64,000 nt of DNA from a bacterium (GCA_049472315.1 JBLIRN010000015.1:2598-66597); one strand, 5' to 3'; counted from the stretch's first letter, positions 2,685 to 40,394 are shown. Numbers and translations are program-made. Notes: generated by a model from the sequence alone, not told the origin.

Positions 2685-3293
2685 ATGGACATCAAGTGTC
2701 TTTTCAAGAGGATCAAGTACGGCAAACCCATCATCATTGTCTCCGGCCTGCCTCGGTCAGGGACCTCAATGGTGATGAAGATGCTGGAGGCAGGGGGAAT
2801 GAAGATCGCCTCCGATGGCATACGGGCCGCAGATGACGACAATCCCAAGGGGTACTATGAGCTCGAGAGGGTGAAGACACTGGACAAGGAAATGGACAAA
2901 TCCTGGCTTCGGGAGCTTCGCGGCAGGGCGGTGAAGATCATCTCCTACTTTCTGCGGTATCTGCCTGACAGCAATTACTACAAGGTGATATTCATCGACC
3001 GGAATCTGGACGAGGTGGTAGCCTCCCAGAACAAGATGCTGGCCAATCGGGAAAAAACCCATGATCCATGCGACGATGAATGCATCATCAAGAATTTCGA
3101 GAGCCATCTATGGAAGATACGGAATACGATTCTTGCCAAATCCTGGTTTGAGCCACTGTATCTCAACCATCGCCTTGTGCTCACCAATCCGAGGGAACAG
3201 GCCCGGATAATCAAGCGGTTTTTGGGCGGGTGCCTTGATGAGGAGCGGATGGCGAGTATCGTGGATCCCAAGCTCTACCGGAACCGCAAATAG
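2685..3293 (+). CDS. sulfotransferase family protein
   Basis: ORF 2556..3293. Likely true start is the ATG at 2685 (MDIKCLF), with an AAGGA RBS 7 nt upstream. The PAPS-binding P-loop-like motif IIIVSGLPRSGTSM and overall sulfotransferase-like layout support the call. Confidence 0.7.
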   Translation: MDIKCLFKRIKYGKPIIIVSGLPRSGTSMVMKMLEAGGMKIASDGIRAADDDNPKGYYELERVKTLDKEMDKSWLRELRGRAVKIISYFLRYLPDSNYYKVIFIDRNLDEVVASQNKMLANREKTHDPCDDECIIKNFESHLWKIRNTILAKSWFEPLYLNHRLVLTNPREQARIIKRFLGGCLDEERMASIVDPKLYRNRK

Positions 3294-19743: not shown

Positions 19744-21544
19744 GGCGATATCCCCCGTAGTACAATACCTCTTCACCCCTGTCATCGCGTAAGGCGCGAA
19801 TCGTCTCCCCCATGAAGCGGCCCAGCCCATGAATGACCGCCTCATCCTCTGAAATGGGATCGAGTGCCATGGTCATCTTGGTGTCCGGCATATGGTAGAG
19901 GAAGTACTCGATCAGGAGGAGGCCGTCCCTCTCGATGAGGCGAGGCTCCTTGAACAATTCCGCATCATCCCCCAGATTGGTGATATGGTAAGGTCCCAGC
20001 CGATCCAGCCAGGCGGGCGGGATGCTCACGGGCTGAATCTTTGGGCCGAGAAGATATCTCTTGTTGTTGCGAACGAGCGCCAGGAGTTGCCGTCCGTCGA
20101 TACGCTCGAACGTAAAGGTGATGCCTGCGAGCTGCTTGACCGTTAGGGGAAAGAGACCGAATACCCGATATTTCATGGAGTATAACCCGTTGGTCATGGG
20201 CACGAGATCATATACCTTGTCCCAGAGGTGGACCCGCCTTCGCTCCCCGCATGTGTCGACCGTCAGCACCCCCAGGCACGTGGCATAGGTCCCTGTCAAC
20301 TCCTGCTGCTCTTCGTCGGCCAGGGAGACGATGCCCGGTTCGTTGTTTTTCTCCGGTGACGGTTCCTTGATGCCGGTCTTCGTCTCCAGGGCGAGCATCA
20401 GCCCGGTGCGGGCGATTTCGTCAACCGCCTTTCTCACGGGCGCCATGATACTGTTGGCGATCACCACGATCCCCAGCTTGTGATCGAGCAGGGTGACCAT
20501 TTTGCTGTATGTGCCCAGGGTGGCCCCGCCATGTCCGGCTACGCGGCCGGCATAGGCAAGCCCCTCGTCGTCCAGCCACCAGCCGAGACCGATCCGGAAA
20601 TCCATATCCAGGGGTATCGCACTGTTCTGGCACCGGAGGATTTCCTGGAGCGTTTCCTGGCCAAGGATTGTTTCCCTTCCTGCAGTGCCTTCTGCAAAGA
20701 TCATGTTCATGAATCGGGCAAGATCTCTGACTGTGGTGTACAATCCTCCGGCAGGAACCTCGCGCAGCCTATAGGGATTCAGCTCTCGATCCCCCTCGTA
20801 CTCCTTTGCCAGAAAGGGCTTCAGCTCAGGGGACAAAGAAAACGCAGAATGCGTCATACCGAGCGGATCCAATACGCATTCCTCGATATACGACTCGTAG
20901 GGCGTCCCACTCACCCGCTCTATGGTCAGGCCAAGGAGCGAGAATCCGACGTTCGAATATGAGAACACGTAGTCGGGAGGATGGGCCGTGTATGCATCCC
21001 GTAGCATCTCGACCACCATCTCGTAGGGTCCCGGATGTTCGGTCCACATTCCCTTCATGATGTCGGAGGGGAGTCCCGAGTGATGGGTCATGAGGTTGCG
21101 GAGGGTTATGGCCTTTTCGCCTTGAAAACGCGTCTTAACTTGGAATTCAGGAAGACAGGTGTTCAGGGATTCATCGATGTCAAGCCTCCCCTGCTCGGCG
21201 AGATGCATGATCCCGGTGACGGTGAACACCTTGGTGATTGATCCGACCTGATAGATGGTCTCCTCCGTTGCCGCGATTTTACCGGAGACGTCGGCAAGGC
21301 CGAATCCCCTGGACCATACCTCCTCCTGGTCGTCCACGATGGCGATGCTGAGCCCCTTTATATTGTGTTTCTTCATCTTCTTCTCGATCTTCCACGTGAG
21401 ATATTCTCCCGTGTACGCATAATCATCGGTCAGGACGGGAGGCCTTGGGGGCTCCGATGAACAGCCTGAGAACACAAAAACGATGCAGACCAGCAGACAT
21501 AGGAACTGTAGAAAAATAGCGTGATCGCCCTTCGCTGTGCTCAT
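19724..21544 (-). CDS. serine hydrolase, beta-lactamase/transpeptidase-like family lipoprotein
   Basis: Lipobox FSGCSS. SxxK active-site motif VGSITKVFT. YSN-like motif FSYSNVGFSLLG. Extra C-terminal domain. Confidence 0.85.
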   Translation of the reverse strand: MSTAKGDHAIFLQFLCLLVCIVFVFSGCSSEPPRPPVLTDDYAYTGEYLTWKIEKKMKKHNIKGLSIAIVDDQEEVWSRGFGLADVSGKIAATEETIYQVGSITKVFTVTGIMHLAEQGRLDIDESLNTCLPEFQVKTRFQGEKAITLRNLMTHHSGLPSDIMKGMWTEHPGPYEMVVEMLRDAYTAHPPDYVFSYSNVGFSLLGLTIERVSGTPYESYIEECVLDPLGMTHSAFSLSPELKPFLAKEYEGDRELNPYRLREVPAGGLYTTVRDLARFMNMIFAEGTAGRETILGQETLQEILRCQNSAIPLDMDFRIGLGWWLDDEGLAYAGRVAGHGGATLGTYSKMVTLLDHKLGIVVIANSIMAPVRKAVDEIARTGLMLALETKTGIKEPSPEKNNEPGIVSLADEEQQELTGTYATCLGVLTVDTCGERRRVHLWDKVYDLVPMTNGLYSMKYRVFGLFPLTVKQLAGITFTFERIDGRQLLALVRNNKRYLLGPKIQPVSIPPAWLDRLGPYHITNLGDDAELFKEPRLIERDGLLLIEYFLYHMPDTKMTMALDPISEDEAVIHGLGRFMGETIRALRDDRGEEVLYYGGYRLKRATE

Positions 21545-22461
21545 GACATTCCCTCGATTGTTTGTATCTCGCAGAGGACACCGCGATGGTCGGATACCTG
21601 GTCTTCAAGGACTCTATAGGCAGTGAATTCCAGGTCCGAAGAGATCAGTACCCAGTCAAGCCTCTTTCCAAGCAAGGGAAAGGTCTCCATGCCTGCCTGG
21701 CGGGTCTGGTATCCCTTGAGCCGGCATTGTTCCGCAAGCATGTGCAGGGCTGAGTCCCTGGCCTGCCACTCACAGTTGAAATCGCCCATGACGATTGAAA
21801 TCCTGTTGCGGGAGGAGAGGCGGTCGATGAGGTCTTCCATCTGCCGTTGACGCACGGAATTGCGTGAAAAATCAAGGTGAAGGGAGATCACATCGATCTC
21901 TATTGCGGGATCTCCCGGCCATGTCACGGTGGCCACAACGAATCCCTTGGAAAGTGTGGGTGGGGAAGGGGAGAAGGTGACCGAAACGGGCTCTCTGAGG
22001 GGTATCCTGGACAGCAGCGCGGTGCCGTAGGAGAGCTTCATCCCCTTTACATGCTCTCCCCTCACCGAGTAAGGGAAACCCCCTTTATGGGCGAGATATT
22101 CCACCTGGTCCCTCATGCCGCTCCAGATCGACGGCCCGTCGGCCTCCTGAAGGGCGACGATATCAGGGGCTTCACGCCTGAGCACCGCCGCGATATCATC
22201 CAGATTGACCTGGATGTCGCGGCCTTTCTGAAATACCCGGTAGGCATCGTTTCCTCTCCCGTGGGCCATGTTCAACGTCATCAGCCTTAGGGAAGGAAGG
22301 CGAACATGATGCCCTGCCTCCGATAAGGGAATAGGCCCCTCGTGCTCGAACACCGCGGGCTGCATCACCCTGCTTCCACTCATCATCGGGGGCAGGGCAA
22401 AGGCGGAGGTGACCGCGAGAATGCCTAACGAAAAACAGAGAATACGTTTTCTCCTTTGCAT
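21541..22461 (-). CDS. endonuclease/exonuclease/phosphatase (EEP) family protein, secreted
   Basis: ORF 21541..22737. Probable start is MQRRKRIL at 22461, followed by a signal peptide. EEP motifs LRLMTLNMAHG, DIVALQEAD, MGDFN, SDHRGV. Four-nt overlap with the downstream serine hydrolase gene. Confidence 0.8.
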   Translation of the reverse strand: MQRRKRILCFSLGILAVTSAFALPPMMSGSRVMQPAVFEHEGPIPLSEAGHHVRLPSLRLMTLNMAHGRGNDAYRVFQKGRDIQVNLDDIAAVLRREAPDIVALQEADGPSIWSGMRDQVEYLAHKGGFPYSVRGEHVKGMKLSYGTALLSRIPLREPVSVTFSPSPPTLSKGFVVATVTWPGDPAIEIDVISLHLDFSRNSVRQRQMEDLIDRLSSRNRISIVMGDFNCEWQARDSALHMLAEQCRLKGYQTRQAGMETFPLLGKRLDWVLISSDLEFTAYRVLEDQVSDHRGVLCEIQTIEGMS

Positions 22462-22609
22462 AATCACATGTGATTGAAGGTGCGTGTGCGGTAAAATCTT
22501 GGTGACTGGCTGCGCAGTGACAGGAGCCGGATCTTTCCGGAAAGAATAATCCAGATCGGTCGCGTTGTCAATACGGATCCTTGCCTGTGTCAACGAGCGG
22601 ACCTTATGG

Positions 22610-22945
22610 TTAATAGGGTATCTTCTCAGCGGGCCTTCGCTCCGGCACATACCGGTGAGGGATCCTTCCCTCGTTCCATTCCTTGGATACATAGAGATTG
22701 CAGTAACAGCTCCCGTATTCCTCGACATCCGGGGCACGGTACTCGCAGGGGCAGATGATGTCCTTGTCCTTATCGCGATCTCCGGACGCGAGCCTGCACG
22801 GGCAGCACATGTATCCGTAGCGCTTCTTGTTTACCAGCAAGCCCTCCAGGAGCTCGAAGGTCCGCTGCCTATCCTTGTTAAAAAGGTATCCCTTGGGCTT
22901 CTGGACCCGTTTCAGCATCTCATGGAGTTTTTCGACGTCGCTCAT
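22610..22945 (-). CDS. ferredoxin-thioredoxin reductase catalytic subunit-like protein
   Basis: ORF 22610..23026. Likely start is MSDVEKLHE at 22945. FTR-type Cys pattern CCPCR...CPCEY...CYC (two CPC motifs plus CxC). Confidence 0.75.
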   Translation of the reverse strand: MSDVEKLHEMLKRVQKPKGYLFNKDRQRTFELLEGLLVNKKRYGYMCCPCRLASGDRDKDKDIICPCEYRAPDVEEYGSCYCNLYVSKEWNEGRIPHRYVPERRPAEKIPY

Positions 22946-30931: not shown

Positions 30932-32653
30932 CTATTTCCTTCTCAGGAGTCTCTTCACCTGTTTCCATGATCGGCTATTCAGGACGTCTTCCGGCTCCAG
31001 CCAGCCCCGCCGGGCCTGACCGACGCCGAAGGCCATGAAATCGAGGTCCCTGATGCTGTGGGCGTCCGTGGATATAACGATCTTCAACCCCTTCTCCTTG
31101 GCCATCTTGCAGTGGATGTCGTTGAGATCCAGCCGCACCGGATGGGCGTTGAGCTCAAGGAGGCACCCACGTTCCGCTGCCGCCTGCATGATCTTCTCCA
31201 TGTCCACCTCGTAGGGCGGGCGCTTCTTGATGAGCCTGCCGGTGGGATGACCGAGGATGGTGAAATACGGATTATCCATGGCCCGGATGATGCGCTTGGT
31301 CTGTTTTTGCCTGGAAAGCTTGGCATTGTAATGCACCGAGCAGACCGTGAGGTCGAGCTCCTTGAGGATGTCGTCCGGCAGGTCCAGGGAGCCATCCTCC
31401 AGGATGTCCACCTCAACCCCTTTCACAATAAAAAACGCCTTCTGTCTGCCATTCAATGCATCGATCTCCTTGATCTGCGTGGCAAGCGCCTTTTTGTCCA
31501 GGCCGTGCGCCATGGTCACCCGCTTGGAGTGCTCGGTGATCGCCATGTATTCGTAACCCCTCTCCTTGGCCGCCTTTACCATCTCCTCCAGGCTGAAGTG
31601 CCCGTCGGTGCGATTGGTGTGGGTGTGCAGGTCCCCCTTGATATGATCGAGGGTGATCAGGTCCGGCAGCCGTCCCTCCCGCGCCGCCTCCACCTCTCCC
31701 CGGCCTTCCCGAAGCTCCGGGGGGATAAAGGGAAGCCCCACCTGCACGAACACATCCTCCTCCCGTTTCCCGGCGATTCGCTTCTTTCCCTTGAATATGC
31801 CGTATTCGTTGATCTTGAGCCCCTTTTTTACCCCGATCTTCCGGATGGCGATGTTGTGGGCCTTCGACCCGGTGAAATAGTGGATGGCCGCGCCGTAGCT
31901 TTCCTGGGAAAACACCCGCAGATCCACCTGGGTCCCGGAGCGGAGTATCACCGTGGAGCGCATATCTCCGTGGGACACCACCGTGTCCACGTCCTCGTAT
32001 TTCACGAACCGATCCATGACCGGAGACCCCTTCGTGCAGGTCACCAGGATGTCCAGGTCCCCTACCGTTTCCTTGTGGCGCCGGTAGCTCCCCGCCACCT
32101 CGACATCCTTTACTCCGTCCACCTTCTGCAGGTAACTCCGGTAGTCCTCGGCGATCTCCCTGGCCACCAGCAGCCGTATGCGTCCCTTTTCCTCCTTGAC
32201 TCCCTGGATGCCCTCCAGTATGGACTGCTCCGTCTTTTCCCCGAACCCGGAGATCTCCCTGATCTTCCCATTCTCTGCCGCCTTCTTTAAATCGGAGATT
32301 GTGGTGATCCCCAGTTTCTCGTGGAGCGTCTTTACCCGCTTGGGACCCAGCCCGGCTATATTGAGCAGTTTGCTCAACGCGGGAGAAACCTCCTTTTTGA
32401 GATCCTCCAGGAGGGGAAGTTTACCGGTTTCCACGATCTCCTTGATCTTTCCGGCAAGGTCCTTGCCGATCCCCGACAGGCGTGAGAGGTCCTCGTTCTT
32501 TTTCACCATGTCAGCGGCGCTGGAGGAAAGGCCCCCTACCGTCCGGGCAGCGTCCCGATATGCACGAACCCGAAATGCGTTCTCCCCCTTGATCTCGAGA
32601 AGGTCCGCCACCTGGTTGAATATGGCGGCAATATCCGTGTTGTGAACAGGCAC
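30932..32653 (-). CDS. polX: DNA polymerase X family protein with C-terminal PHP phosphoesterase domain
   Basis: ORF 30932..32782. Likely start is the GTG at 32653, after a GGAGG RBS (MPVHNTDIAAIFNQVADLLEIKGENAFRVRAYR). Pol beta-like HhH and nucleotidyltransferase motifs (GSYRRHKETVGDLDILV). PHP motifs (HTHTNRTDGH, ITEH, TDAHS). Confidence 0.9.
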   Translation of the reverse strand: MPVHNTDIAAIFNQVADLLEIKGENAFRVRAYRDAARTVGGLSSSAADMVKKNEDLSRLSGIGKDLAGKIKEIVETGKLPLLEDLKKEVSPALSKLLNIAGLGPKRVKTLHEKLGITTISDLKKAAENGKIREISGFGEKTEQSILEGIQGVKEEKGRIRLLVAREIAEDYRSYLQKVDGVKDVEVAGSYRRHKETVGDLDILVTCTKGSPVMDRFVKYEDVDTVVSHGDMRSTVILRSGTQVDLRVFSQESYGAAIHYFTGSKAHNIAIRKIGVKKGLKINEYGIFKGKKRIAGKREEDVFVQVGLPFIPPELREGRGEVEAAREGRLPDLITLDHIKGDLHTHTNRTDGHFSLEEMVKAAKERGYEYMAITEHSKRVTMAHGLDKKALATQIKEIDALNGRQKAFFIVKGVEVDILEDGSLDLPDDILKELDLTVCSVHYNAKLSRQKQTKRIIRAMDNPYFTILGHPTGRLIKKRPPYEVDMEKIMQAAAERGCLLELNAHPVRLDLNDIHCKMAKEKGLKIVISTDAHSIRDLDFMAFGVGQARRGWLEPEDVLNSRSWKQVKRLLRRK

Positions 32654-32655
32654 CG

Positions 32656-33393
32656 TCAGCCTCCCTGAATCATGGATTGGAGCCGCAGGGCATTCCGAGC
32701 CGCATACCCTGCCTGGTCGTTGTCGAAATAGCAGTAGACGGTCCTTCCCCCCTTGGACCACGTGGAAAGGGCGCCCGCCCATCCGGCCAGTTCCTCTGTT
32801 TTGTATGATCCCTCATAAGGGCCTCCCGGGCCGTGGAGGCGGATATAGACGAAATCCGCAGTGATCTCCTTGGGTGATATGCTGCCGTTCAGGTCGAAGA
32901 TGCAGAAGGCGGCATTGCGTTTTTCCAGGGCGTGGTACACCCCTTCGTTGAACCAGCGGGGATCACGGAATTCGAAGGCATAGCGGTGGTTTACGGGCAA
33001 TGTATCGAGGAATGCATCCAGCCGCTCCAGGTTGGAACGCCATCGGGGGGGCAGTTGAAAAAGCACCGGGCCCAGTGTTGACCCCAGCGCCTCCACCCGG
33101 TCCAGAAAGGTGGACACCGGCTCCTTCGGGTCCTTGAGCCGCTTTATATGGGTGATGAAGCGACTCGCCTTGACCGCGAAGATGAACCCCTCCGGTACGG
33201 TTGTGCTCCATATCTTCAGTGTCTCCGTATCAGGGATCTGATAGAAGGTGTTGTTGATCTCCACCGTTCGGAAGCGATCGGCATAGTATTCCAGAAAGTC
33301 CCTGGATCGCATCTCCCGGGGATAGAAACTTCCCTTCCAGTGTTGATAGTGCCATCCTGATGTCCCGATATGTATGCTGCCCTTCCTGTTCAT
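32656..33393 (-). CDS. DUF72 (YecE-like) domain protein
   Basis: HIGTSGWHYQHWKGSFYP. TVEINNTFY. GPVLFQLPP. Stop abuts the polX start, suggesting translational coupling. Confidence 0.85.
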   Translation of the reverse strand: MNRKGSIHIGTSGWHYQHWKGSFYPREMRSRDFLEYYADRFRTVEINNTFYQIPDTETLKIWSTTVPEGFIFAVKASRFITHIKRLKDPKEPVSTFLDRVEALGSTLGPVLFQLPPRWRSNLERLDAFLDTLPVNHRYAFEFRDPRWFNEGVYHALEKRNAAFCIFDLNGSISPKEITADFVYIRLHGPGGPYEGSYKTEELAGWAGALSTWSKGGRTVYCYFDNDQAGYAARNALRLQSMIQGG

Positions 33394-33750: not shown

Positions 33751-34440
33751 TTACCTATCGGCGGGTTTGAGGAACGTACTCAGGTGGTCGTAGAGAACCG
33801 GAAGGAGAAAGAACAGCGCGAGTGAGATGAATGCGATCCATGCCTTCCATGAGAAGATGTCATCCGGACTTTTGATGTGTGCAAGCTGCTGGCCGGCAAA
33901 GGTGCAGATGAACGAACCGGGAAGTGCCCCTACCGATGTGGTCCACACGAAGGTCTTCAGGGGGATACCGGTGATGCCGGCAAGATAATTGATAAGGAAA
34001 AAGGGGAGAAGGGGAATCAGGCGCAGGCTCAGCATATAGTTGTGGCTGTGGTCGCGTATCCTTTCGTTGAACAATCGCAACTGGTCACGGAACCGGTGAC
34101 GAACCCATCCCCCTATCAGATACCGGGCGCTCAGGAAGGCCAGGGTCCCTCCTATCACCGTGGCAAGGTTGATATATATCATGCCAAGAATCACCCCGAA
34201 GAGGAAGCCTGCGGCTACGGAAAGGATCAGGGCGCCCGGCAGCAGGAAGGCGGTCATGATATACATAGCGATAAATGCAAGCAGGGAAGGAACATAGTGA
34301 CGATCCACGAATTCCTTGATCTTGGAGCGGTTATCCTTGAGCCTCTGGAAGGCCAGATCCTGGCCGGTCCTGGAGGTCCATACGAAAAAAATCGTCACTG
34401 CGACCAGGATGATTATGAGTCCGAGGGATTTGATTTTCAT
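33751..34440 (-). CDS. TVP38/TMEM64 (DedA/SNARE-associated) family membrane protein
   Basis: ORF 33751..34497. Likely start is MKIKSLG at 34440. Multiple TM helices. DedA core FLLPGALILSVAAGFLFG ... ARYLIG ... INYLAGITGIPLKTF. Confidence 0.8.
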   Translation of the reverse strand: MKIKSLGLIIILVAVTIFFVWTSRTGQDLAFQRLKDNRSKIKEFVDRHYVPSLLAFIAMYIMTAFLLPGALILSVAAGFLFGVILGMIYINLATVIGGTLAFLSARYLIGGWVRHRFRDQLRLFNERIRDHSHNYMLSLRLIPLLPFFLINYLAGITGIPLKTFVWTTSVGALPGSFICTFAGQQLAHIKSPDDIFSWKAWIAFISLALFFLLPVLYDHLSTFLKPADR

Positions 34441-34561
34441 GATACTGATACATCCTTCCCCAACATGCCATGCCAGCGCTGCCGATCCAATATACACGGT
34501 ATCACAGGAGGGTCAGCTGTAACAAGCAGTGCCTCTGCAATGCATGGGGGGGAAAAATCGT

Positions 34562-35311
34562 ATGAGCGAACCGACATTCAGGGTTATGACCTACAATGTC
34601 CACAGTTGCATCGGCAGTGACCGGAAGGCGTCGCCTTTGAGAACAGCCGAGGTGATCCGACAGCACTCCCCGGACATTGTGGCGCTGCAGGAGCTCGATG
34701 CGGGTCAGGAACGAAGCGGGGCGCAGTTTCAGGCCCATGTCATCGCACAGAGCCTGAATATGACCTATCGGTTTCATCCCTCCGACATTGTGGGAGGGGG
34801 AGAGTACGGAAACGCCATCCTGAGCCGCTTTCCCATCCGGTTGGTAAAGGCCGGGGATCTCCCCGGATATGTGTATTCCGGACGTGTCCCTGAGAAACGA
34901 GGTGCCCTATGGGTGGAGGTGTACCTGGCCGACCGGGGGGTGCAGGTCGTCACCACCCACCTGGGGCTTACCCGCAGGGAACGGCTGGTCCAGGCACACG
35001 CCCTGCTCGGCCCGCAATGGTTCAATCATCCGGAGTGCCGTTGCCCTCTGGTCATCACCGGCGATTTTAACGCACTCCCCTGTTCACAGGTATATCGTCT
35101 TTTCCGGCGGGTGCTGCGTGACATACAGTGCCACGGGGGAAACGGGAATCGACCCCGGAGTACATGGCCGAGCCGCTGTCCGGTATTTCGCATCGATCAT
35201 GTGTTTGTAACCCCGGACATCGTGGTGCATGGCGTACGGGTCCCCCGAACCAGGCTGGAGCGCACGGCATCGGATCACCTCCCGCTGGTTGCTGATCTGG
35301 GATTCTTGTGA
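34562..35311 (+). CDS. endonuclease/exonuclease/phosphatase (EEP) family protein
   Basis: ORF 34529..35311. Start is the ATG at 34562. EEP motifs FRVMTYNVHS, DIVALQELD, ITGDFN, SDHLPLVADL. Confidence 0.8.
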   Translation: MSEPTFRVMTYNVHSCIGSDRKASPLRTAEVIRQHSPDIVALQELDAGQERSGAQFQAHVIAQSLNMTYRFHPSDIVGGGEYGNAILSRFPIRLVKAGDLPGYVYSGRVPEKRGALWVEVYLADRGVQVVTTHLGLTRRERLVQAHALLGPQWFNHPECRCPLVITGDFNALPCSQVYRLFRRVLRDIQCHGGNGNRPRSTWPSRCPVFRIDHVFVTPDIVVHGVRVPRTRLERTASDHLPLVADLGFL

Positions 35312-35349
35312 TGTCGGGAGGAAAAAGTGCATGACCGGAGAGACCAATA

Positions 35350-37053
35350 ATGGAGAAAATTCTCGCCCCCGGGCGTAATTGCTGGGGAAACTTTCAGGTC
35401 CGGGATAGCGGGCTTCTCATTGACGGCCGCAACTATTACCGGGCCTTTTATCATGCCGCCCGGCAAGCGCAGCGCTACATCCTCATCGCCGGATGGCAGT
35501 TTGACAGTGACGTGCGGCTGCTTCGAGGCGCGGACGCGGCAGAGGCCGGCGGGGACGTGCGCCTGCTCCCCTTTCTCAAGGGGCTTTGCCGGGGTAACCC
35601 GGACCTCGCCATCTATATCCTGGCATGGGATTTCAGCATGCTCTTTTCCATAAAGCGCGAATGGTTTCAGGAGTGGATCTTCAACTGGACCACCAACCGG
35701 CAGCTTCGGTTTCGCTTCGACAGCAGGCATGCGGTGGGTGCCAGCCATCATCAGAAGTTCGTGGTGATCGACGGGGTGCTCGCATTCGTGGGTGGCTTTG
35801 ATATCTGCGCCGAGCGGTGGGATGATCGTGATCACCGGCCGGAGAATCCCGATCGCGTCAACAGTGCGGGCAAGGGGTATGAGTTGTATCACGATATACA
35901 GACCTATCACGTCGGGCCGGCGGCGATGAGGCTGACGGAGCTTTTCAAGGATCGATGGGCGCATTCCGATGGAGGAACGCTCGATCTGCCTCCCCCTCCC
36001 CGCGGGTATCATTTTGACGTGGAAGGGGGTATCGCCATTGCCGCCGACCGGGTCGCCATAAGCAGGACCCAGTCAAAAACCCTGGTGCCTGCCTGGAAAT
36101 CGATCCGTGAGATCCGCCGGCTTTTCACAGATGCCATCCATGGTGCGGAGCGGTTGATTTATATAGAGAATCAGTACTTCAGCTCCCAGGCTGTTTACCG
36201 GGCACTGCTCGACCGGATGCGGAAGACGAGTGGGGAATCCCTCCAGGTGATCGTCATCCTCCCCCAAAAACCCCATGCGCTGATCGAGGAGATTTCCCTG
36301 GGGATCGCCCAGATGAGCATGATCCATTCCCTTACGGAGGCGGCGGCCGGACAGGGGCATTCGCTGGGATTCTATTATCCTGCATCCGTATCGAGCAAGG
36401 ATACATCGGCTTCGGTATACGTGCATGCGAAGCTGCTTCTGGTTGACGACCGTTTTCTTACCGTGGGATCGGCGAACATCTCCAACCGGAGCATGGGGCT
36501 GGATACCGAGCTGAATGCCTCCTGGGAGGCAACAACCGGTGATCAGCGCGCAGTCATTCGTTCCATCCGGCGGACCAGGGTGAGCCTCCTCGCCGAACAT
36601 GCCGGTATAAAGTCCCGCCGGGACCTTCGGCGGTTGTGCCGCACGGATGGTATCGTTCGTTTCCTTGACGGTCTTGCGGATCGCCCCCGTTCGCCCCTGC
36701 GTCACCACACCACGGAGACCCTTTTCAAGAATGCATCATGGCTTGAGGAGATAAAGATCGAGGACCTTTCCCTGGACCCGGAGAGACCCATTGTGGAGGA
36801 GAACATCTACGAGCTTATCTCCCGGGACACCTCCGGCCTTTTCGCCAAGGGTATCACCCTGCTGCGTACAATGAAACGCGGACACCCCTCGAATTCCGAC
36901 GGGAAGCCCAGGCGGGGACGGCAATTCCACTTCCCGTTATGGGGGCGCTTTATGGACACTACCAGCCTCGTCGGTCATACCCGGCATTTAAAATGGATCA
37001 CCCTCTTCCTCATCATGCTCCTTGCGGCAGCGGTGGTTCTGTTACTCATGTGA
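35350..37053 (+). CDS. phospholipase D / cardiolipin-synthase-like protein (two HKD motifs) with C-terminal TM anchor
   Basis: HKD-1 HHQKFVVIDGVLAFVGGFDI. HKD-2 VHAKLLLVDDRFLTVGSANISNRS. C-terminal hydrophobic tail ITLFLIMLLAAAVVLLLM. Confidence 0.9.
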   Translation: MEKILAPGRNCWGNFQVRDSGLLIDGRNYYRAFYHAARQAQRYILIAGWQFDSDVRLLRGADAAEAGGDVRLLPFLKGLCRGNPDLAIYILAWDFSMLFSIKREWFQEWIFNWTTNRQLRFRFDSRHAVGASHHQKFVVIDGVLAFVGGFDICAERWDDRDHRPENPDRVNSAGKGYELYHDIQTYHVGPAAMRLTELFKDRWAHSDGGTLDLPPPPRGYHFDVEGGIAIAADRVAISRTQSKTLVPAWKSIREIRRLFTDAIHGAERLIYIENQYFSSQAVYRALLDRMRKTSGESLQVIVILPQKPHALIEEISLGIAQMSMIHSLTEAAAGQGHSLGFYYPASVSSKDTSASVYVHAKLLLVDDRFLTVGSANISNRSMGLDTELNASWEATTGDQRAVIRSIRRTRVSLLAEHAGIKSRRDLRRLCRTDGIVRFLDGLADRPRSPLRHHTTETLFKNASWLEEIKIEDLSLDPERPIVEENIYELISRDTSGLFAKGITLLRTMKRGHPSNSDGKPRRGRQFHFPLWGRFMDTTSLVGHTRHLKWITLFLIMLLAAAVVLLLM

Positions 37054-37071
37054 AAAGGGCAACCATCTGTT

Positions 37072-37242
37072 TCACCATTCTCTTTCAGGAACACCAAGAC
37101 GCTTCAGCCACCAGGTCATGCCCATGGCGGCAGCGGTGGTGACCATGATAACGGCCGCATGCAATGCGAATCCCAGAGGGGTGGCATTCCGGATAATCGG
37201 CCCTGCTGGAGCAGCATATACATGGGTATCACAGGAGGATAT
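37072..37242 (-). pseudogene. remnant of a DedA/TVP38 C-terminal end: degenerate copy of the 3-prime end of the PLD-DedA fusion gene
   Basis: Minus-strand frame reads ...AAPAGPIIRNATPLGFALHAAVIMVTTAAAMGMTWWLKRLGVPEREW*. The C-terminus of gene 38262..40394 reads ...ADRAGAIIRNPAPLEFVLLAAAIILTATAALGVVWWLKRLGVSGSER*. About 70% nucleotide identity over ~115 nt. No start codon; an in-frame stop lies upstream. Confidence 0.55.
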
Positions 37243-37455
37243 CCTTTAAGGCATGAATATGGAAGGGAATTTATAAAGGACACGTTAAGGTGGGGATTTT
37301 TATAATCTCACGAGGGGGACATGCAGGCTAATTTCAGTTCCATCAAAATCATTATCAGTGCCGGTTATGGTCAGATGGTGTTTTTCGGCTGCTACGTACT
37401 GCATTGCATTCTCTTGACAAGACCATGGCTATTCCATTTCCCCCGTATCAAGGAG

Positions 37456-37779
37456 TTAATAAAGCCCCAATTGAACCTTGATCGCCTCCCCGATCTTGAG
37501 CATGTCATCTTCAGAGAGAATCCCCGCAGGTTTAAAGAGCCGTAATTTACTCACCGTGGCCAGTTGATCGGCCATGGCCTTGCTTTCCCTGCCGTCAAAC
37601 ATGACAATCGCTTCACTTGGATATTGACGGCCTGTCTTACTCGTCAGGGGAACAACCTGAACGCGATTGAGGAATCTATTGGAGGCATCATTGCTGACGA
37701 TTACGGCAGGACGCCTTTTTTTGATCTCACCGCCCACGGAGGGATCAAAATTGACCCACCAGACCTCACCCCGCTTCAT
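37456..37779 (-). CDS. mazF: type II toxin-antitoxin system PemK/MazF family toxin (mRNA interferase)
   Basis: ORF 37456..37911. Start is the ATG at 37779 (MKRGEVWWVNFDPSVGGEIKKRRPAVIVSND...VVPLTSK). Classic MazF/PemK pattern. Confidence 0.85.
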   Translation of the reverse strand: MKRGEVWWVNFDPSVGGEIKKRRPAVIVSNDASNRFLNRVQVVPLTSKTGRQYPSEAIVMFDGRESKAMADQLATVSKLRLFKPAGILSEDDMLKIGEAIKVQLGLY

Positions 37780-37996
37780 GGGTGATGTCCCTGAAGGTGG
37801 CCTCTGCCCACTCCAAGGCCTCCTCTTCGCGCTTTTTGTCCTTTGACATTTGGGAATAGGCGGATTCCAGATTGGGGCGAACGACATGGGGACGCACGAG
37901 ATTTTCAACAAATTTGCTGATTCGACGAGGACCTATAACCTTATGAAGACCCTCGTAAACTTCCTCATCCACGGTTATGGTCAGCTTTTTCTGCAT
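37766..37996 (-). CDS. type II toxin-antitoxin system antitoxin (RHH/MazE-like), cognate of the downstream MazF
   Basis: 76-aa ORF. Overlaps the toxin start by 14 nt. N-terminal beta-strand KKLTITVDEEVYEGL is typical of ribbon-helix-helix or swapped-hairpin antitoxins. AGGAGG RBS. Confidence 0.7.
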   Translation of the reverse strand: MQKKLTITVDEEVYEGLHKVIGPRRISKFVENLVRPHVVRPNLESAYSQMSKDKKREEEALEWAEATFRDITHEAG

Positions 37997-38016
37997 GTCA
38001 GATCCTCCTTCACGTT

Positions 38017-38037
38017 TATACGTATAGTATACGTATA
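38017..38037. promoter_or_regulatory. candidate TA operator/promoter: two tandem copies of the 10-bp palindrome TATACGTATA immediately upstream of the antitoxin RBS
   Basis: TATACGTATA-G-TATACGTATA at 38017..38037. The RBS (RC AAGGAGG) is at 38003..38008 and the antitoxin start at 37996. Confidence 0.5.
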
Positions 38038-38261
38038 ATGCTGCATGATGTCAAATATGAATAACTTAAGAAAAAATACTCCATAACCTACCCATTGGAC
38101 CGACTTTTGGCGCATTCACGGCGAGGATGATACGGAAGGCCCGGCGTGCCGCTTGGTTTCCCACCACCGGTCGAGGTGAAACATACGGCTTGCATGAGAG
38201 AGGTTCAGCGATGTATTCATGGTGCCTGAGGGTGTTTGGAATGATTGCCGCTTTTACGATT

Positions 38262-40394
38262 TTACCGTTCACTTCCGGAGACACCGAGACGTTTCAGCCA
38301 CCACACCACGCCGAGGGCGGCAGTGGCGGTGAGTATGATCGCTGCGGCCAGCAATACGAATTCCAGGGGTGCGGGGTTGCGGATAATGGCCCCCGCCCGG
38401 TCTGCAACGATGGCAACAATCAGAAGACCCGGCAGCACACCGAGGATGGTGCCCGGCAGGAAATGGCGGAAACGGGTGTGTGATGCCCCGGCCACAAGAT
38501 TCACCAGTGTAAAGGACGCCACAGGCACCACCCGTACCGCCAGGACCGAACGCACCCCGTTTCGAGCGATGAGCCGGCTGACTATATTGAGCCGGGGACC
38601 GGCGATCCGCCGGATGATCCCCCGGCCGAGGAGGCGGCCAAGCCAGAAGGTGAACACGGCGCCTGCCAGTATCCCCGCATAGGCGTAAGCGAAACCGGTA
38701 AATGGGCCAAAAATCACCACGGTGGCCACGATGAGCAGGGTGACCGGCAGGGCGATAAGTGAGAAAACGGCGTATACGAGCATGACCCACAGGGACGTGA
38801 GCTTGGAGCTCCTGATTATTGCAGCAAGTTGTTTCAGGGCCTCCACGTCGATCCATTCCCCGAAAGGCGACCACCGCCAGGCGGCGACGAGCCCTGCAAC
38901 GGCTGCAAGAATGAGGGTGACCACAACGATGCGCTGCCTGGCGGAACGGCGGTGCTCGGAGGGAAGCATCTCCCGGGCCAGACGATCGGGATCGATGGGC
39001 ACCTCCGGATCGATAACCACCGCCTCGGGCACCATGGCGTCAACGGCAAGCGGGATGTCCGCAGGAATGGGCCCCATGCTCCGTTCGCCGCCCTGAAGCT
39101 GTTGAATTGCCCTGATCAGCGATCCGGTCCCCGAATGCACCTCTGCAACCCGTTCCGGGGTCGCCCCCAGGTGCTCGGCAAGAAGCCGGCAGCGCAGGCT
39201 GGCAATGGCTGCGGCATGGGTTTCGGTGAGGGCCTCCATGGCCAGATCGCACTCCGTGTCATATCCCATGGACCGGTTGTTGAGATTGGCCGAGCCTATG
39301 CGCACGAACCGGTCATCGACGATCATCAGCTTGCTGTGAAGATTGATCTGCGCTGCCTCCAGTGCCGCATGACGCGGATAGCACACCAGAAGTCTTTCCC
39401 GTTTATCCACCTCCCTCAACCTTTTGACGAGCCGTGCCCGCAACACCTCCATGGTCACCTCCTCCAGCCAGCCTCCTCCGGACAGGCGGGAGACAATGAC
39501 TACCTCCGGTCCTTTCGCCTCCTGCAGGCGCGTTGACAGTGCCTCTGCAATCTCCGCTGAGGTGAGGTATTGATTTTCGATATAGATGAACCGGCGGGCC
39601 GCGGCAATGGCGTCAAGGTAGAGCTGTTTCACCTCCCGCACCTCCGGGTGTTGTTTGTACCGGGGCTCGGTGCGGGCAATGGCCACCTCTGCATCGCGTA
39701 TATCCGGTGAAACCCCGGCGGGCCATGGATCAGGGCCTTCCGGGGCATGTGATGAGGGAGGCCGGTGGCCGGTGGCACGGCGCCACCGCTCCCCGGCCAG
39801 TTCACCCAGGGCGGCTGCGGCCTTCCCGTCGACCAGCATCTGTATGTCGTGAAAGGGCGGATAGGGGTTCCCTTGCGGATTGATACGGCGTGGGTCACCG
39901 GGGAGATGCTCGGGGGTGTCCCATCGTCCCCTGGTGAGATCCAGTCCCCCCACAAAGGCCACGGCATCGTCGATCACCACGATCTTCTGATGGTGGGACC
40001 CACCCACAGGATGGGCGGCGTCCAGGCGGAAGCGGAGTCTGGGATGGGAGGTCCATGCAGGCCGGAAAACGGGAAACAACTCGCGGTTGAATGCGTAGAC
40101 CATGGCAAAGTCCCAGTCCAGCAGATACACCTGAAGGTCCCTGCGCTGCGAGACCAGGGCGTCGAGGAATTCACCAAGCCGAACCGGCAGGTCGTCCTGA
40201 GGCGTGTCCCGCACCATTCGGACCTGGCTGTGCATATCCCAGCCGACGATGAATAGGGAACGCTGTGCACGGGCCGCTGCCTCCCTGAAGGCCGCGAAGT
40301 AGGATGCGCCGTCTATCAGAAAGGCCACCCTGTCCGACCTGAAGATACGCCAGCAGTTGCGGCCCGGACGAAGGATGCGGTCACTCATCTTCAT
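38262..40394 (-). CDS. phospholipase D-like (two HKD motifs) fused to a C-terminal DedA/TVP38 membrane domain
   Basis: HKD-1 HHQKIVVIDDAVAFVGGLDL. HKD-2 LHSKLMIVDDRFVRIGSANLNNRS. C-terminal ~230 aa with multiple TM helices and DedA-like pattern (FGPFTGFAYAYAGILAGAVFTFWLGRLLG...). Long antisense ORFs 38269..38874(-) and 38829..39536(+) are rejected. Confidence 0.9.
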   Translation of the reverse strand: MKMSDRILRPGRNCWRIFRSDRVAFLIDGASYFAAFREAAARAQRSLFIVGWDMHSQVRMVRDTPQDDLPVRLGEFLDALVSQRRDLQVYLLDWDFAMVYAFNRELFPVFRPAWTSHPRLRFRLDAAHPVGGSHHQKIVVIDDAVAFVGGLDLTRGRWDTPEHLPGDPRRINPQGNPYPPFHDIQMLVDGKAAAALGELAGERWRRATGHRPPSSHAPEGPDPWPAGVSPDIRDAEVAIARTEPRYKQHPEVREVKQLYLDAIAAARRFIYIENQYLTSAEIAEALSTRLQEAKGPEVVIVSRLSGGGWLEEVTMEVLRARLVKRLREVDKRERLLVCYPRHAALEAAQINLHSKLMIVDDRFVRIGSANLNNRSMGYDTECDLAMEALTETHAAAIASLRCRLLAEHLGATPERVAEVHSGTGSLIRAIQQLQGGERSMGPIPADIPLAVDAMVPEAVVIDPEVPIDPDRLAREMLPSEHRRSARQRIVVVTLILAAVAGLVAAWRWSPFGEWIDVEALKQLAAIIRSSKLTSLWVMLVYAVFSLIALPVTLLIVATVVIFGPFTGFAYAYAGILAGAVFTFWLGRLLGRGIIRRIAGPRLNIVSRLIARNGVRSVLAVRVVPVASFTLVNLVAGASHTRFRHFLPGTILGVLPGLLIVAIVADRAGAIIRNPAPLEFVLLAAAIILTATAALGVVWWLKRLGVSGSER

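Follow-up and report, generated by a model that had tools for sequence, protein, structure and literature searches.

We conclude that a complete toxin-antitoxin (TA) module of the MazF/PemK type entered the 3' end of a PLD::DedA fusion gene and left a second, degenerate gene end behind, as had been proposed from a reading of the sequence before any comparison with relatives. The case is a real scar of gene transfer, of a known kind. In the window (the whole 64,000-nt stretch of DNA that was analyzed, from an uncultured bacterium), two diverged copies of the end of this gene enclose the module (Table 1), and the only close relative found, L011, has one copy of the tail, no remnant, and no TA module. 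The tail now in use is probably xenologous, having come with the insert, and the remnant is probably the original gene end, which appears to be decaying neutrally as a pseudogene fragment. We give about an even chance to the view that a single old recombination event produced this arrangement, anchored by homology within the gene, illegitimate on its other side, and with the new tail supplied by the donor. Both the mechanism of recombination and the identity of the original copy are matters that we infer.

Results

The gene that would have been the insertion target encodes two PLD active-site motifs (PLDc, HKD-type) and a VTT/DedA membrane domain. Its 3' end and the remnant form a direct repeat that is 137 nt long, ungapped, and 74% identical, with a spacing of 1,190 nt, and that ends 2 nt beyond both stop codons. 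The sequence-only reading had put the identity at about 70% over about 115 nt; the similarity stands, and the figure was slightly conservative. Comparison with shuffled controls bears out its significance, since local alignment of the two copies scored 99, compared with 18.1 ± 2.2 (maximum, 27) in 500 shuffles. The differences are interleaved along the entire 137 nt, and no exact match is longer than 11 nt (TGGTGGCTGAA). A frame check agrees with the earlier description of the remnant (translation ending in AGPIIRNATPLGFALHAAVIMVTTAAAMGMTWWLKRLGVPEREW, followed by the stop) as start-less and preceded by an in-frame stop; its first start is an internal ATG that would yield only 24 aa. The stop codon of the PLD gene lies 18 nt from that of the remnant, and the junction between the remnant and spacer B, at 37206/37207, is abrupt. 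The same layout occurs in ten independently assembled metagenome contigs that are at least 99.92% identical, which rules out an assembly artifact, and exact-sequence look-ups with MazF and PLD::DedA led to this species alone, always in this layout. A paralogous DedA gene (33751-34497) was considered as the source of the tail and rejected, as the C termini are unrelated.

Table 1. Features of the variable junction between the PLD::DedA and PLD genes (window coordinates)
Feature	Position	Strand	Basis
Convergent PLD gene, 567 aa; borders the variable junction on the right	35350..37053	+	ORF, Pfam
Repeat copy 2, start-less remnant of the PLD::DedA 3' end	37070..37206	-	Repeat search
Spacer B, MazF stop to remnant; 249 nt of orphan sequence, AT-rich (43% GC)	37207..37455	-	GC, without similarity
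MazF/PemK toxin gene, 107 aa, intact	37456..37779	-	ORF, PF02452
Antitoxin gene, 76 aa	37766..37996	-	ORF
TA promoter and putative operator	38016..38054	-	Promoter scan, hairpin search
Spacer A, PLD::DedA stop to TA promoter; 199 nt of orphan sequence	38061..38259	-	Without similarity
Repeat copy 1, PLD::DedA 3' end in use (codons 666-710, stop, and 2 nt)	38260..38396	-	Repeat search
PLD::DedA fusion gene, 710 aa; putative insertion target	38262..40394	-	ORF; Pfam PLDc, PLDc_2, VTT_dom

The TA operon that separates the two gene ends is complete and has a putative operator of its own, as the sequence-only reading had it, and it also has its own promoter. Judged by its sequence, the module has the organization of a type II TA operon: the antitoxin gene lies upstream of the MazF gene, the two overlap by 14 nt, and they are preceded by a promoter with a palindrome. 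The toxin matches PF02452 with an E value of 4e-27 and 95 bits (cutoff, 23.1), residues 2 to 103 aligning to positions 1 to 108 of the 109 in the profile, and its nearest solved structure is that of M. tuberculosis MazF9 (5hjz; E = 3e-17; full-length alignment). The antitoxin has no Pfam match at E ≤ 0.01. It matches the NCBIfam MazE model NF050104 weakly (E = 1e-4; 22.6 bits, below the cutoff of 65), its match to CopG is not significant (E = 0.8), and it is probably a ribbon-helix-helix MazE-like protein. The promoter scan found a -35 box TTGACA (38054-38049) and a -10 box TATACT (38031-38026) with a 17-nt spacer, amounting to 11 of 12 matches. A perfect 10-bp inverted repeat, TTATACGTAT-ACT-ATACGTATAA (38016-38038), is the predicted operator; the palindrome and the -35 box are conserved in the TA homologs L012 to L014.

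The module is predicted to be active. As in other chromosomal mazEF systems, the complex of antitoxin and toxin would act at the palindrome to repress the promoter of the operon, and free MazF would cleave RNA once the labile antitoxin was lost. Because loss of the antitoxin would release the toxin, the insert may be hard to lose; every sampled member of the species has it. Compared with chromosomal MazEF/PemIK modules, this one is nothing unusual, save for an antitoxin that Pfam does not recognize. It shares with them the overlapping small genes with the antitoxin first, a full-length PemK/MazF domain, a sigma-70-like promoter of its own overlapped by a palindromic (putative) operator, and an occurrence in scattered, unrelated chromosomal contexts and on plasmids.

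The insert as a whole (37207-38259; 1,053 nt) is foreign in composition, its 48% GC lying below the 55% of the window and the 63% of PLD::DedA. In blastn and tblastx comparisons, spacers A and B resembled nothing else in the window, in L011, at the other TA loci, or around 80 PLD::DedA genes, they match no Rfam family, and their secondary structure is not in excess of that of shuffled sequences (z = +0.56 and +1.50). No plasmid or phage match was found outside the TA genes, flanks included. A 15-mer that follows the MazF stop (CTTGATACGGGGGAA) and is shared with a repeated element of L013 was set aside, as it has one copy in the window and is compatible with chance.

The PLD::DedA genes of L011 and the window are 88% identical in nucleotide sequence and 86% identical in amino acid sequence. 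The two loci align at 88% through the PLD gene as well; this homology runs from inside the PLD gene to window position 37063 and then ends, and at the same convergent junction L011 carries two unrelated genes. Its single tail is 83% identical to the remnant over 123 nt. The sequence-only reading had named a remnant without the TA module in related genomes as evidence against it; L011 has neither. As L011 does not provide an empty site, the ancestral state is inferred, not observed. Searches for more relatives added little to this picture: the full-length PLD::DedA query returned one protein at 86% amino acid identity and the next at 58%, a scan of GTDB genomes returned only L011 again, the C-terminal 200 aa retrieved nothing close, and of two DNA scans of JGI metagenomes with tail patterns, one yielded 0 hits and the other 5, all of them chance matches. 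No empty site was found in these searches.

The question of which tail is original can be approached through codon positions. Over all positions of the 133 sites compared, 16 to 18 changes are unique to the remnant, 16 to 17 to the current tail, and 5 to 8 to L011, and at third positions alone the current tail has 11 unique changes, the remnant 4, and L011 3. The distribution of unique changes over first, second, and third positions is 8/4/4 in the remnant, a spread that suggests neutral, pseudogene-like decay. In the current tail it is 3/2/11, and this mostly synonymous pattern suggests a functional sequence with a longer history. The third-position distance to L011 is 0.23 for the remnant, near the gene-wide ortholog value of 0.198, and 0.38 to 0.39 for the current tail (Fisher p = 0.007 for 0.38 against the gene-wide value), the highest of any 45-codon window. 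Only 4.4 third-position changes would be expected in the current tail had it evolved along a vertical branch of the window lineage, compared with the 11 seen (Poisson p = 0.005), and the raised synonymous divergence starts near codons 655 to 666 and continues to the stop.

This excess of synonymous divergence suggests that the current tail probably arrived with the insert, in a case based on 44 codons and one relative. The earlier proposal that the insert supplied a replacement end is thus mildly favored, the current tail being a long branch at third positions. The direct contrast of 11 with 4 changes gives a two-sided p of 0.12, that of the distances of the remnant and the current tail to L011 gives a Fisher p of 0.16, and the excess vanishes if all ortholog divergence is placed on the window lineage (p = 0.26). 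The total nucleotide divergence of the PLD-DedA linker (codons ~491 to 550) nearly equals that of the tail. Composition does not mark the current tail as foreign, since GC3 is 0.71 in the tail and 0.72 in the gene body.

The high divergence of the two copies may suggest an old event, and the junction is variable, with other genes occupying it in L011. Both observations would fit an old event, unrelated to the TA module, in which the gene end was duplicated in tandem, or the decay of a second, paralogous PLD::DedA or DedA gene, with the TA module later landing between the two copies by chance. However, we consider this very unlikely. The closest relative lacks the remnant, and the third-position distance of the remnant to L011 is that of an ortholog, so that the remnant behaves as an ortholog and not as an old paralog. 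Two independent events within one 1.2-kb spot would also be needed, and no further upstream coding sequence of such a paralog could be traced in spacer B.

Discussion

In the single recombination event that we favor, PLD::DedA (minus strand) and PLD (plus strand) would have been ancestrally convergent neighbors with stop codons about 18 nt apart, and their junction would survive as the series of remnant, 18 nt, and PLD stop. A foreign segment with a self-contained TA operon would have come in within the final 45 codons of PLD::DedA. Most probably, this DNA also bore the homologous 3' end of a PLD::DedA gene from a donor that was related but distinct, and in which the TA module would already have lain downstream of PLD::DedA. 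One side would have been anchored by the homology of the gene, and the other end would have been joined illegitimately within the resident tail, at 37206/37207. Because the 3' end of the donor would have been recombined in, PLD::DedA would have kept a working end (38260-38396), and the original 45 codons, shifted 1,190 nt downstream, would have lost their translation start and decayed neutrally. A dedicated recombinase would not have been involved. A donor locus, with the PLD::DedA tail, spacer A, and the TA module in series, was found in none of the collections searched.

The main rival is a long target duplication of the kind reported for restriction-modification (RM) systems (Nobusato et al. 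2000; Furuta et al. 2010, PMC2853133). The 1,053-nt TA segment would have been inserted just past the stop codon, and the resident last 137 nt would have been duplicated, for example by repair of a staggered break, into copies that were identical at first and diverged later. Published criteria for such events comprise a repeat, an addiction module, and a single copy in a relative (PMC2853133), and the window resembles them in that a direct repeat longer than 30 bp, in the 100-bp range like those of the RM cases, flanks an addiction gene pair of less than 20 kb with no mobility genes and corresponds to a single copy in L011. The length of the repeat is within the reported range of 46 to ~420 bp (PMC2853133), its ends lie 2 nt past both stops, and the equal GC3 of current tail and gene body is also as a duplication would have it. 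Nevertheless, we regard this reading as rather unlikely. The published repeats are 88 to 100% identical (PMC2853133), compared with 74% here, and the two copies differ at 41% of third positions, compared with about half as much (20%) between the window gene and its L011 ortholog, even though the duplication is missing from L011. If the duplication is younger than the split from L011, ~11 third-position changes must have accrued in the functional copy where ~4 are expected (p = 0.005); if it is older, L011 must have cleanly lost both the TA module and the remnant. In this small sample, the third-position pattern tends to pair the remnant with L011 and not with the current tail, and the codon positions suggest that, unlike in the RM cases, the two copies differed from the outset. 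The cargo also differs, being a TA and not an RM system, and the related genome offers no empty site.

Elements that carry an integrase target the 3' ends of genes (tRNA, tmRNA, and some protein genes). A larger site-specific element, now decayed, could have integrated through a tyrosine integrase at an att site within the PLD::DedA 3' end and supplied a new end for the gene, with later deletions taking the integrase and cargo and leaving the TA module and two att-bearing copies. The classical attL/attR geometry is a direct repeat of the target end in which the copy next to the element makes the gene whole and the other is a displaced remnant. The current tail appears xenologous, the orphan spacers A and B could be remains of the element, and TA modules are common cargo, often surviving after their element is lost. 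Against these points, there is no integrase, transposase, or other recombinase among the called genes within ~6 kb or in ten ORFs of at least 180 aa scanned from 21.5 to 55.5 kb (within ~15 kb), in keeping with the original observation that none is present. The tail copies contain no identical attL/attR core, their longest exact match being that of 11 nt (an old core may have decayed), and a chimeric (Campbell-type) pattern is ruled out, as the unique changes are interleaved. None of 79 other PLD::DedA loci has an adjoining tail duplicate, TA module, or second PLD gene, so the end of this gene is not a recurrent att site. Finally, the insert is only ~1 kb long, and its flanks lack phage or plasmid matches. 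We therefore consider a decayed integrative element quite improbable. Given these findings, and the fact that the conserved TA unit elsewhere excludes the DedA tail, it was an overstatement to call the arrangement a hallmark of site-specific integrative elements; of the two origins that had been offered, the evidence leans toward recombination-driven capture of a TA module and less toward a decayed integration scar. An integron cassette was also looked for, and there is no attC hairpin in the spacers (folding of spacer B gave nothing attC-like) and no integrase nearby.

[quoted passage not shown] There, as in the event we propose, the 3' end of a gene gives way to an incoming homologous segment with new genes behind it, the former end is pushed downstream and left without a start, and no recombinase gene is needed. 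In contrast to those loci, the displaced piece here is the conserved C-terminal DedA/VTT helix in place of a variable toxin tip, the cargo has no relation to what the host gene does, and a single event left no array. The window would thus hold a clean, datable example of a solitary TA module that reached a chromosome without a phage, transposon, or integrase, and that entered inside a gene without destroying it, since the gene had a replacement end. Few scars of this sort have been documented for type II TA modules. A single case alone alters no concept; a collection of them could show whether TA modules spread by the routes of RM systems (long target duplication) or by those of polymorphic toxins (homology-anchored illegitimate recombination). 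For annotators, the case is a warning that 37072-37206 is probably a pseudogene fragment and not a small gene.

The TA family itself is widespread. More than 100 MazF homologs were found, all of 107 aa and 80 to 88% identical in amino acid sequence, and the antitoxin homologs are 81 to 86% identical. Every MazF homolog examined has a 76-aa gene upstream with the same 14-nt overlap, and the 76-aa/107-aa pair is present in L012 to L016. In other MAGs, the neighbors of the pair include smpB, an MFS transporter gene, and pmbA/tldD, and in other phyla and on plasmids (those of Xylella, Acidithiobacillus, and Azotobacter carry relatives) the contexts are likewise unrelated to that of the window. These loci share with the window only the promoter-to-stop block at 38036..37458 (~79% nucleotide identity). 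By analogy with RM systems, for which such a route has been proposed, the mazEF family could itself be a minimal mobile unit that enters with long target duplications and without a recombinase of its own, the window preserving a fossil of one such entry, an idea that we consider quite improbable. Throughout the family, the unit is a promoter-to-stop block of ~620 nt, with 80 to 88% amino acid identity across several phyla. The TA homolog in L014 is flanked by a 28-nt direct repeat, which, if the family does move in this way, would be a second trace.

A toxin-antitoxin operon between two copies of one gene end

The 1.2-kb intergenic stretch between PLD::DedA and the second PLD gene, read here on the minus strand, holds a toxin-antitoxin (TA) operon bracketed by a remnant of the PLD::DedA 3' end and the tail now in use (see the table). 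The sequence-only reading, which had described degenerate direct copies of this end on either side of the operon, was right in every particular. The two copies align gap-free at 74% identity with a spacing of 1190 nt, and their local alignment score is 99, compared to 18 +/- 2 in shuffles. The remnant frame is, as described, preceded by a stop and has no usable start codon. The insert (37207-38259; 1053 nt) is compositionally foreign: its GC content is 48%, whereas the window is at 55% and PLD::DedA at 63%. The same layout appears in ten metagenome contigs from 10 sequencing runs, each matching the window at 99.92% identity or higher; thus, the arrangement is genuine and is fixed in the population sampled.

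Features of the locus and neighboring genes (window coordinates)
Feature	Position	Strand	Description
PLD::DedA	38262-40394	minus	710 aa; PLDc, PLDc_2, and VTT domains
Current tail	38260-38396	minus	last 45 codons and stop of PLD::DedA
Spacer	38061-38259	minus	199 nt; first feature after PLD::DedA
Predicted promoter, TTGACA-17-TATACT	38054..38026	minus	strong, sigma-70-like; promoter scan
Perfect 10-bp inverted repeat	38016-38038	minus	overlaps promoter; hairpin search
76-aa ORF	37766-37996	minus	TA partner of MazF
107-aa ORF (MazF)	37456-37779	minus	14-nt overlap with 76-aa ORF
AT-rich spacer	37207-37455	minus	249 nt; after 107-aa ORF
Remnant	37070-37206	minus	137 nt; repeats the current tail
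74-aa ORF	37321-37545	plus	antisense to mazF 3' end
Promoter-like site, AGGACA-18-TATAAT	37277-37306		upstream of 74-aa ORF
Second PLD gene	35350-37053	plus	567 aa; convergent with PLD::DedA
Endonuclease/exonuclease/phosphatase	34529-35311		split system
DedA/VTT	33751-34497		split system
PolX	30932-32782	minus	family-X DNA polymerase with PHP domain
Second endonuclease/exonuclease/phosphatase-family protein	21541-22737	minus

Gene calls in all metagenome assemblies include the 74-aa ORF. It matches no family and is probably not a real gene; antisense transcription across the mazF end is conceivable.

The module belongs to a widespread predicted MazF family

Judged by homology, this is an unremarkable MazF/PemK type II module. 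The 107-aa protein matches the full-length PemK/MazF domain (Pfam, E = 4e-27), and its nearest solved structure is Mycobacterium tuberculosis MazF9 (E = 3e-17). The 76-aa protein has no Pfam match, a below-threshold match to NCBIfam MazE, and no significant match to CopG; its gene accompanies MazF in every homologous locus, with identical lengths and the identical 14-nt overlap. The family is very large and unusually uniform: more than 100 relatives of exactly 107 aa share 80 to 88% identity and come from MAGs labeled Nitrospirota, Planctomycetes, and Thermodesulfobacteriota, and more distant relatives are carried on plasmids of Xylella, Acidithiobacillus, and Azotobacter. The neighbors of homologous modules include smpB (locus L012), an MFS transporter (L013), and pmbA/tldD (L014 to L017).

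Nucleotide similarity to these loci (~79%) is limited to 38036..37458, comprising the operator, ribosome-binding site, and two genes; the -35 box and palindrome are kept, with no conservation further upstream or past the stop codon downstream. The traveling unit would therefore be ~620 nt, with no DedA tail at the other loci. The promoter/operator palindrome, ATACGTATAnTATACGTAT, is nearly invariant across L012 to L017, which, together with the uniformity of the 107-aa proteins, suggests recent and frequent horizontal spread. The 64-kb window holds one TA copy.

Repeats also occur near two homologs. In L014, the MazEF homolog lies between copies of a 28-nt direct repeat (1368-1395 and 2214-2241; 82% identity, spacing 846 nt), the downstream one overlapping both the MazF stop codon and the conserved sequence 3' of it. 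Either target duplication or a former TA copy could have left this repeat. L013 has a ~75-nt repeated element upstream of its homolog (2914-2986 and 3216-3286; 87 to 93% identity, 300 nt apart). The 15-mer CTTGATACGGGGGAA, common to that element and window positions 37438-37452, just after the MazF stop, is probably shared by chance.

The junction in other genomes

The collections searched yielded a single close relative, L011 (contig JBLIRP010000123.1 of GCA_049472355.1), which is 88% identical in nucleotides across both PLD::DedA and PLD. It has a single tail, with neither remnant nor TA; in place of the TA, the interval between the convergent genes holds genes of 164 aa and 1121 aa, the latter repeat-rich (L011 1987-5887). 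The 1121-aa product has CarboxypepD_reg/SdrD_B-type repeats and looks secreted. On the PLD side, homology ends ~10 nt past the PLD stop. Given this ending and the differing content, the lineage has a hotspot for variable cargo at this junction. A relative bearing the remnant without the TA had been named as the sign of an old duplication unrelated to the TA; L011 lacks both, and such a duplication is less likely. A further 79 PLD::DedA loci (at most 53% amino acid identity) lack the TA, the second PLD, and the tail duplicate alike, which argues for a single event rather than a recurrent integration site.

Which tail is original

The remnant is 83% identical to the single L011 tail over 123 nt. 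In a three-way alignment of 133 sites, unique changes number 16 to 18 in the remnant, 16 to 17 in the current tail, and 5 to 8 in L011. By codon position (1/2/3), those of the remnant are even and pseudogene-like (8/4/4), those of the current tail largely synonymous (3/2/11), and those of L011 2/3/3. Third-position distances are 0.23 for remnant-L011, 0.39 for current-L011, and 0.41 for remnant-current, with a gene-wide ortholog value of 0.198. No other 45-codon window of PLD::DedA diverges as much at third positions as the current tail, which differs from the rest of the gene (Fisher P = 0.007) and whose branch has 11 third-position changes versus ~4.4 expected under vertical descent (P = 0.005). 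In this comparison of 44 codons with one relative, direct contrasts between the tails are weak (P = 0.06 to 0.16). The overall divergence of the linker region of PLD::DedA nearly equals that of the current tail, and the GC3 of the tail is indistinguishable from that of the gene body. On these substitution patterns, we lean toward the remnant being the orthologous original end and the current tail having a longer separate history and arriving with the insert. The remnant has diverged by ~12%, roughly neutrally over all codon positions, an amount similar to what each lineage has accumulated at third positions since the L011 split; thus, the insertion event is old, of roughly the same age as that split.

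Mechanism

There is no sign of a dedicated recombinase. The earlier remark that no integrase is present held, for transposases also, among the called genes within ~6 kb and in the ten scanned ORFs, each 180 aa or longer, between 21.5 and 55.5 kb. The tail copies share no identical core (longest exact match, 11 nt, with differences interleaved), neither attC-like structure nor any other excess of secondary structure was seen in the spacers, Rfam gave no family matches, and no phage or plasmid match was found in the flanks. A decayed integrative element is less likely.

Two known recombinase-free routes fit. In insertion with long target duplication, both tails would derive from one resident sequence. 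This is documented for restriction-modification (RM) addiction modules that lack mobility genes and are flanked by repeats of 46 to ~420 bp (PMC2853133, PMC3874152), and its formal features are present here. However, it requires initially identical copies, a requirement not easily reconciled with the 41% difference between them at third positions when orthologs differ from the duplication-free L011 by only 20%. In the literature searched, type II TA insertion is linked to long target duplication only in general reviews of RM/TA mobility, and we consider it improbable that this MazEF family inserts autonomously in this way.

We prefer homology-facilitated illegitimate recombination, which fits the apparently xenologous tail. 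The donor would be related DNA in which PLD::DedA was already followed by the TA; the incoming DNA would pair inside the resident gene and its far end would be joined illegitimately within the resident tail, replacing the gene end and displacing the old one. End replacement with displacement of the old end is also the logic put forward to explain the orphaned 3' regions at Rhs, CDI, and T6SS loci (PMC5361080). The scar is a combination of features already known and the TA is ordinary; the locus thus adds a neat example without establishing a new principle.

PolX and the second endonuclease/exonuclease/phosphatase-family protein lie <16 kb from the locus. Beside the fused PLD::DedA, a split system (33751-37053), made up of DedA/VTT, the endonuclease/exonuclease/phosphatase, and the second PLD gene, forms a side-by-side paralogous version of it. 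Identity between the two PLDs is only ~33%. Of the 80 PLD::DedA loci compared (the 79 and L011), L011 alone has this pairing too.
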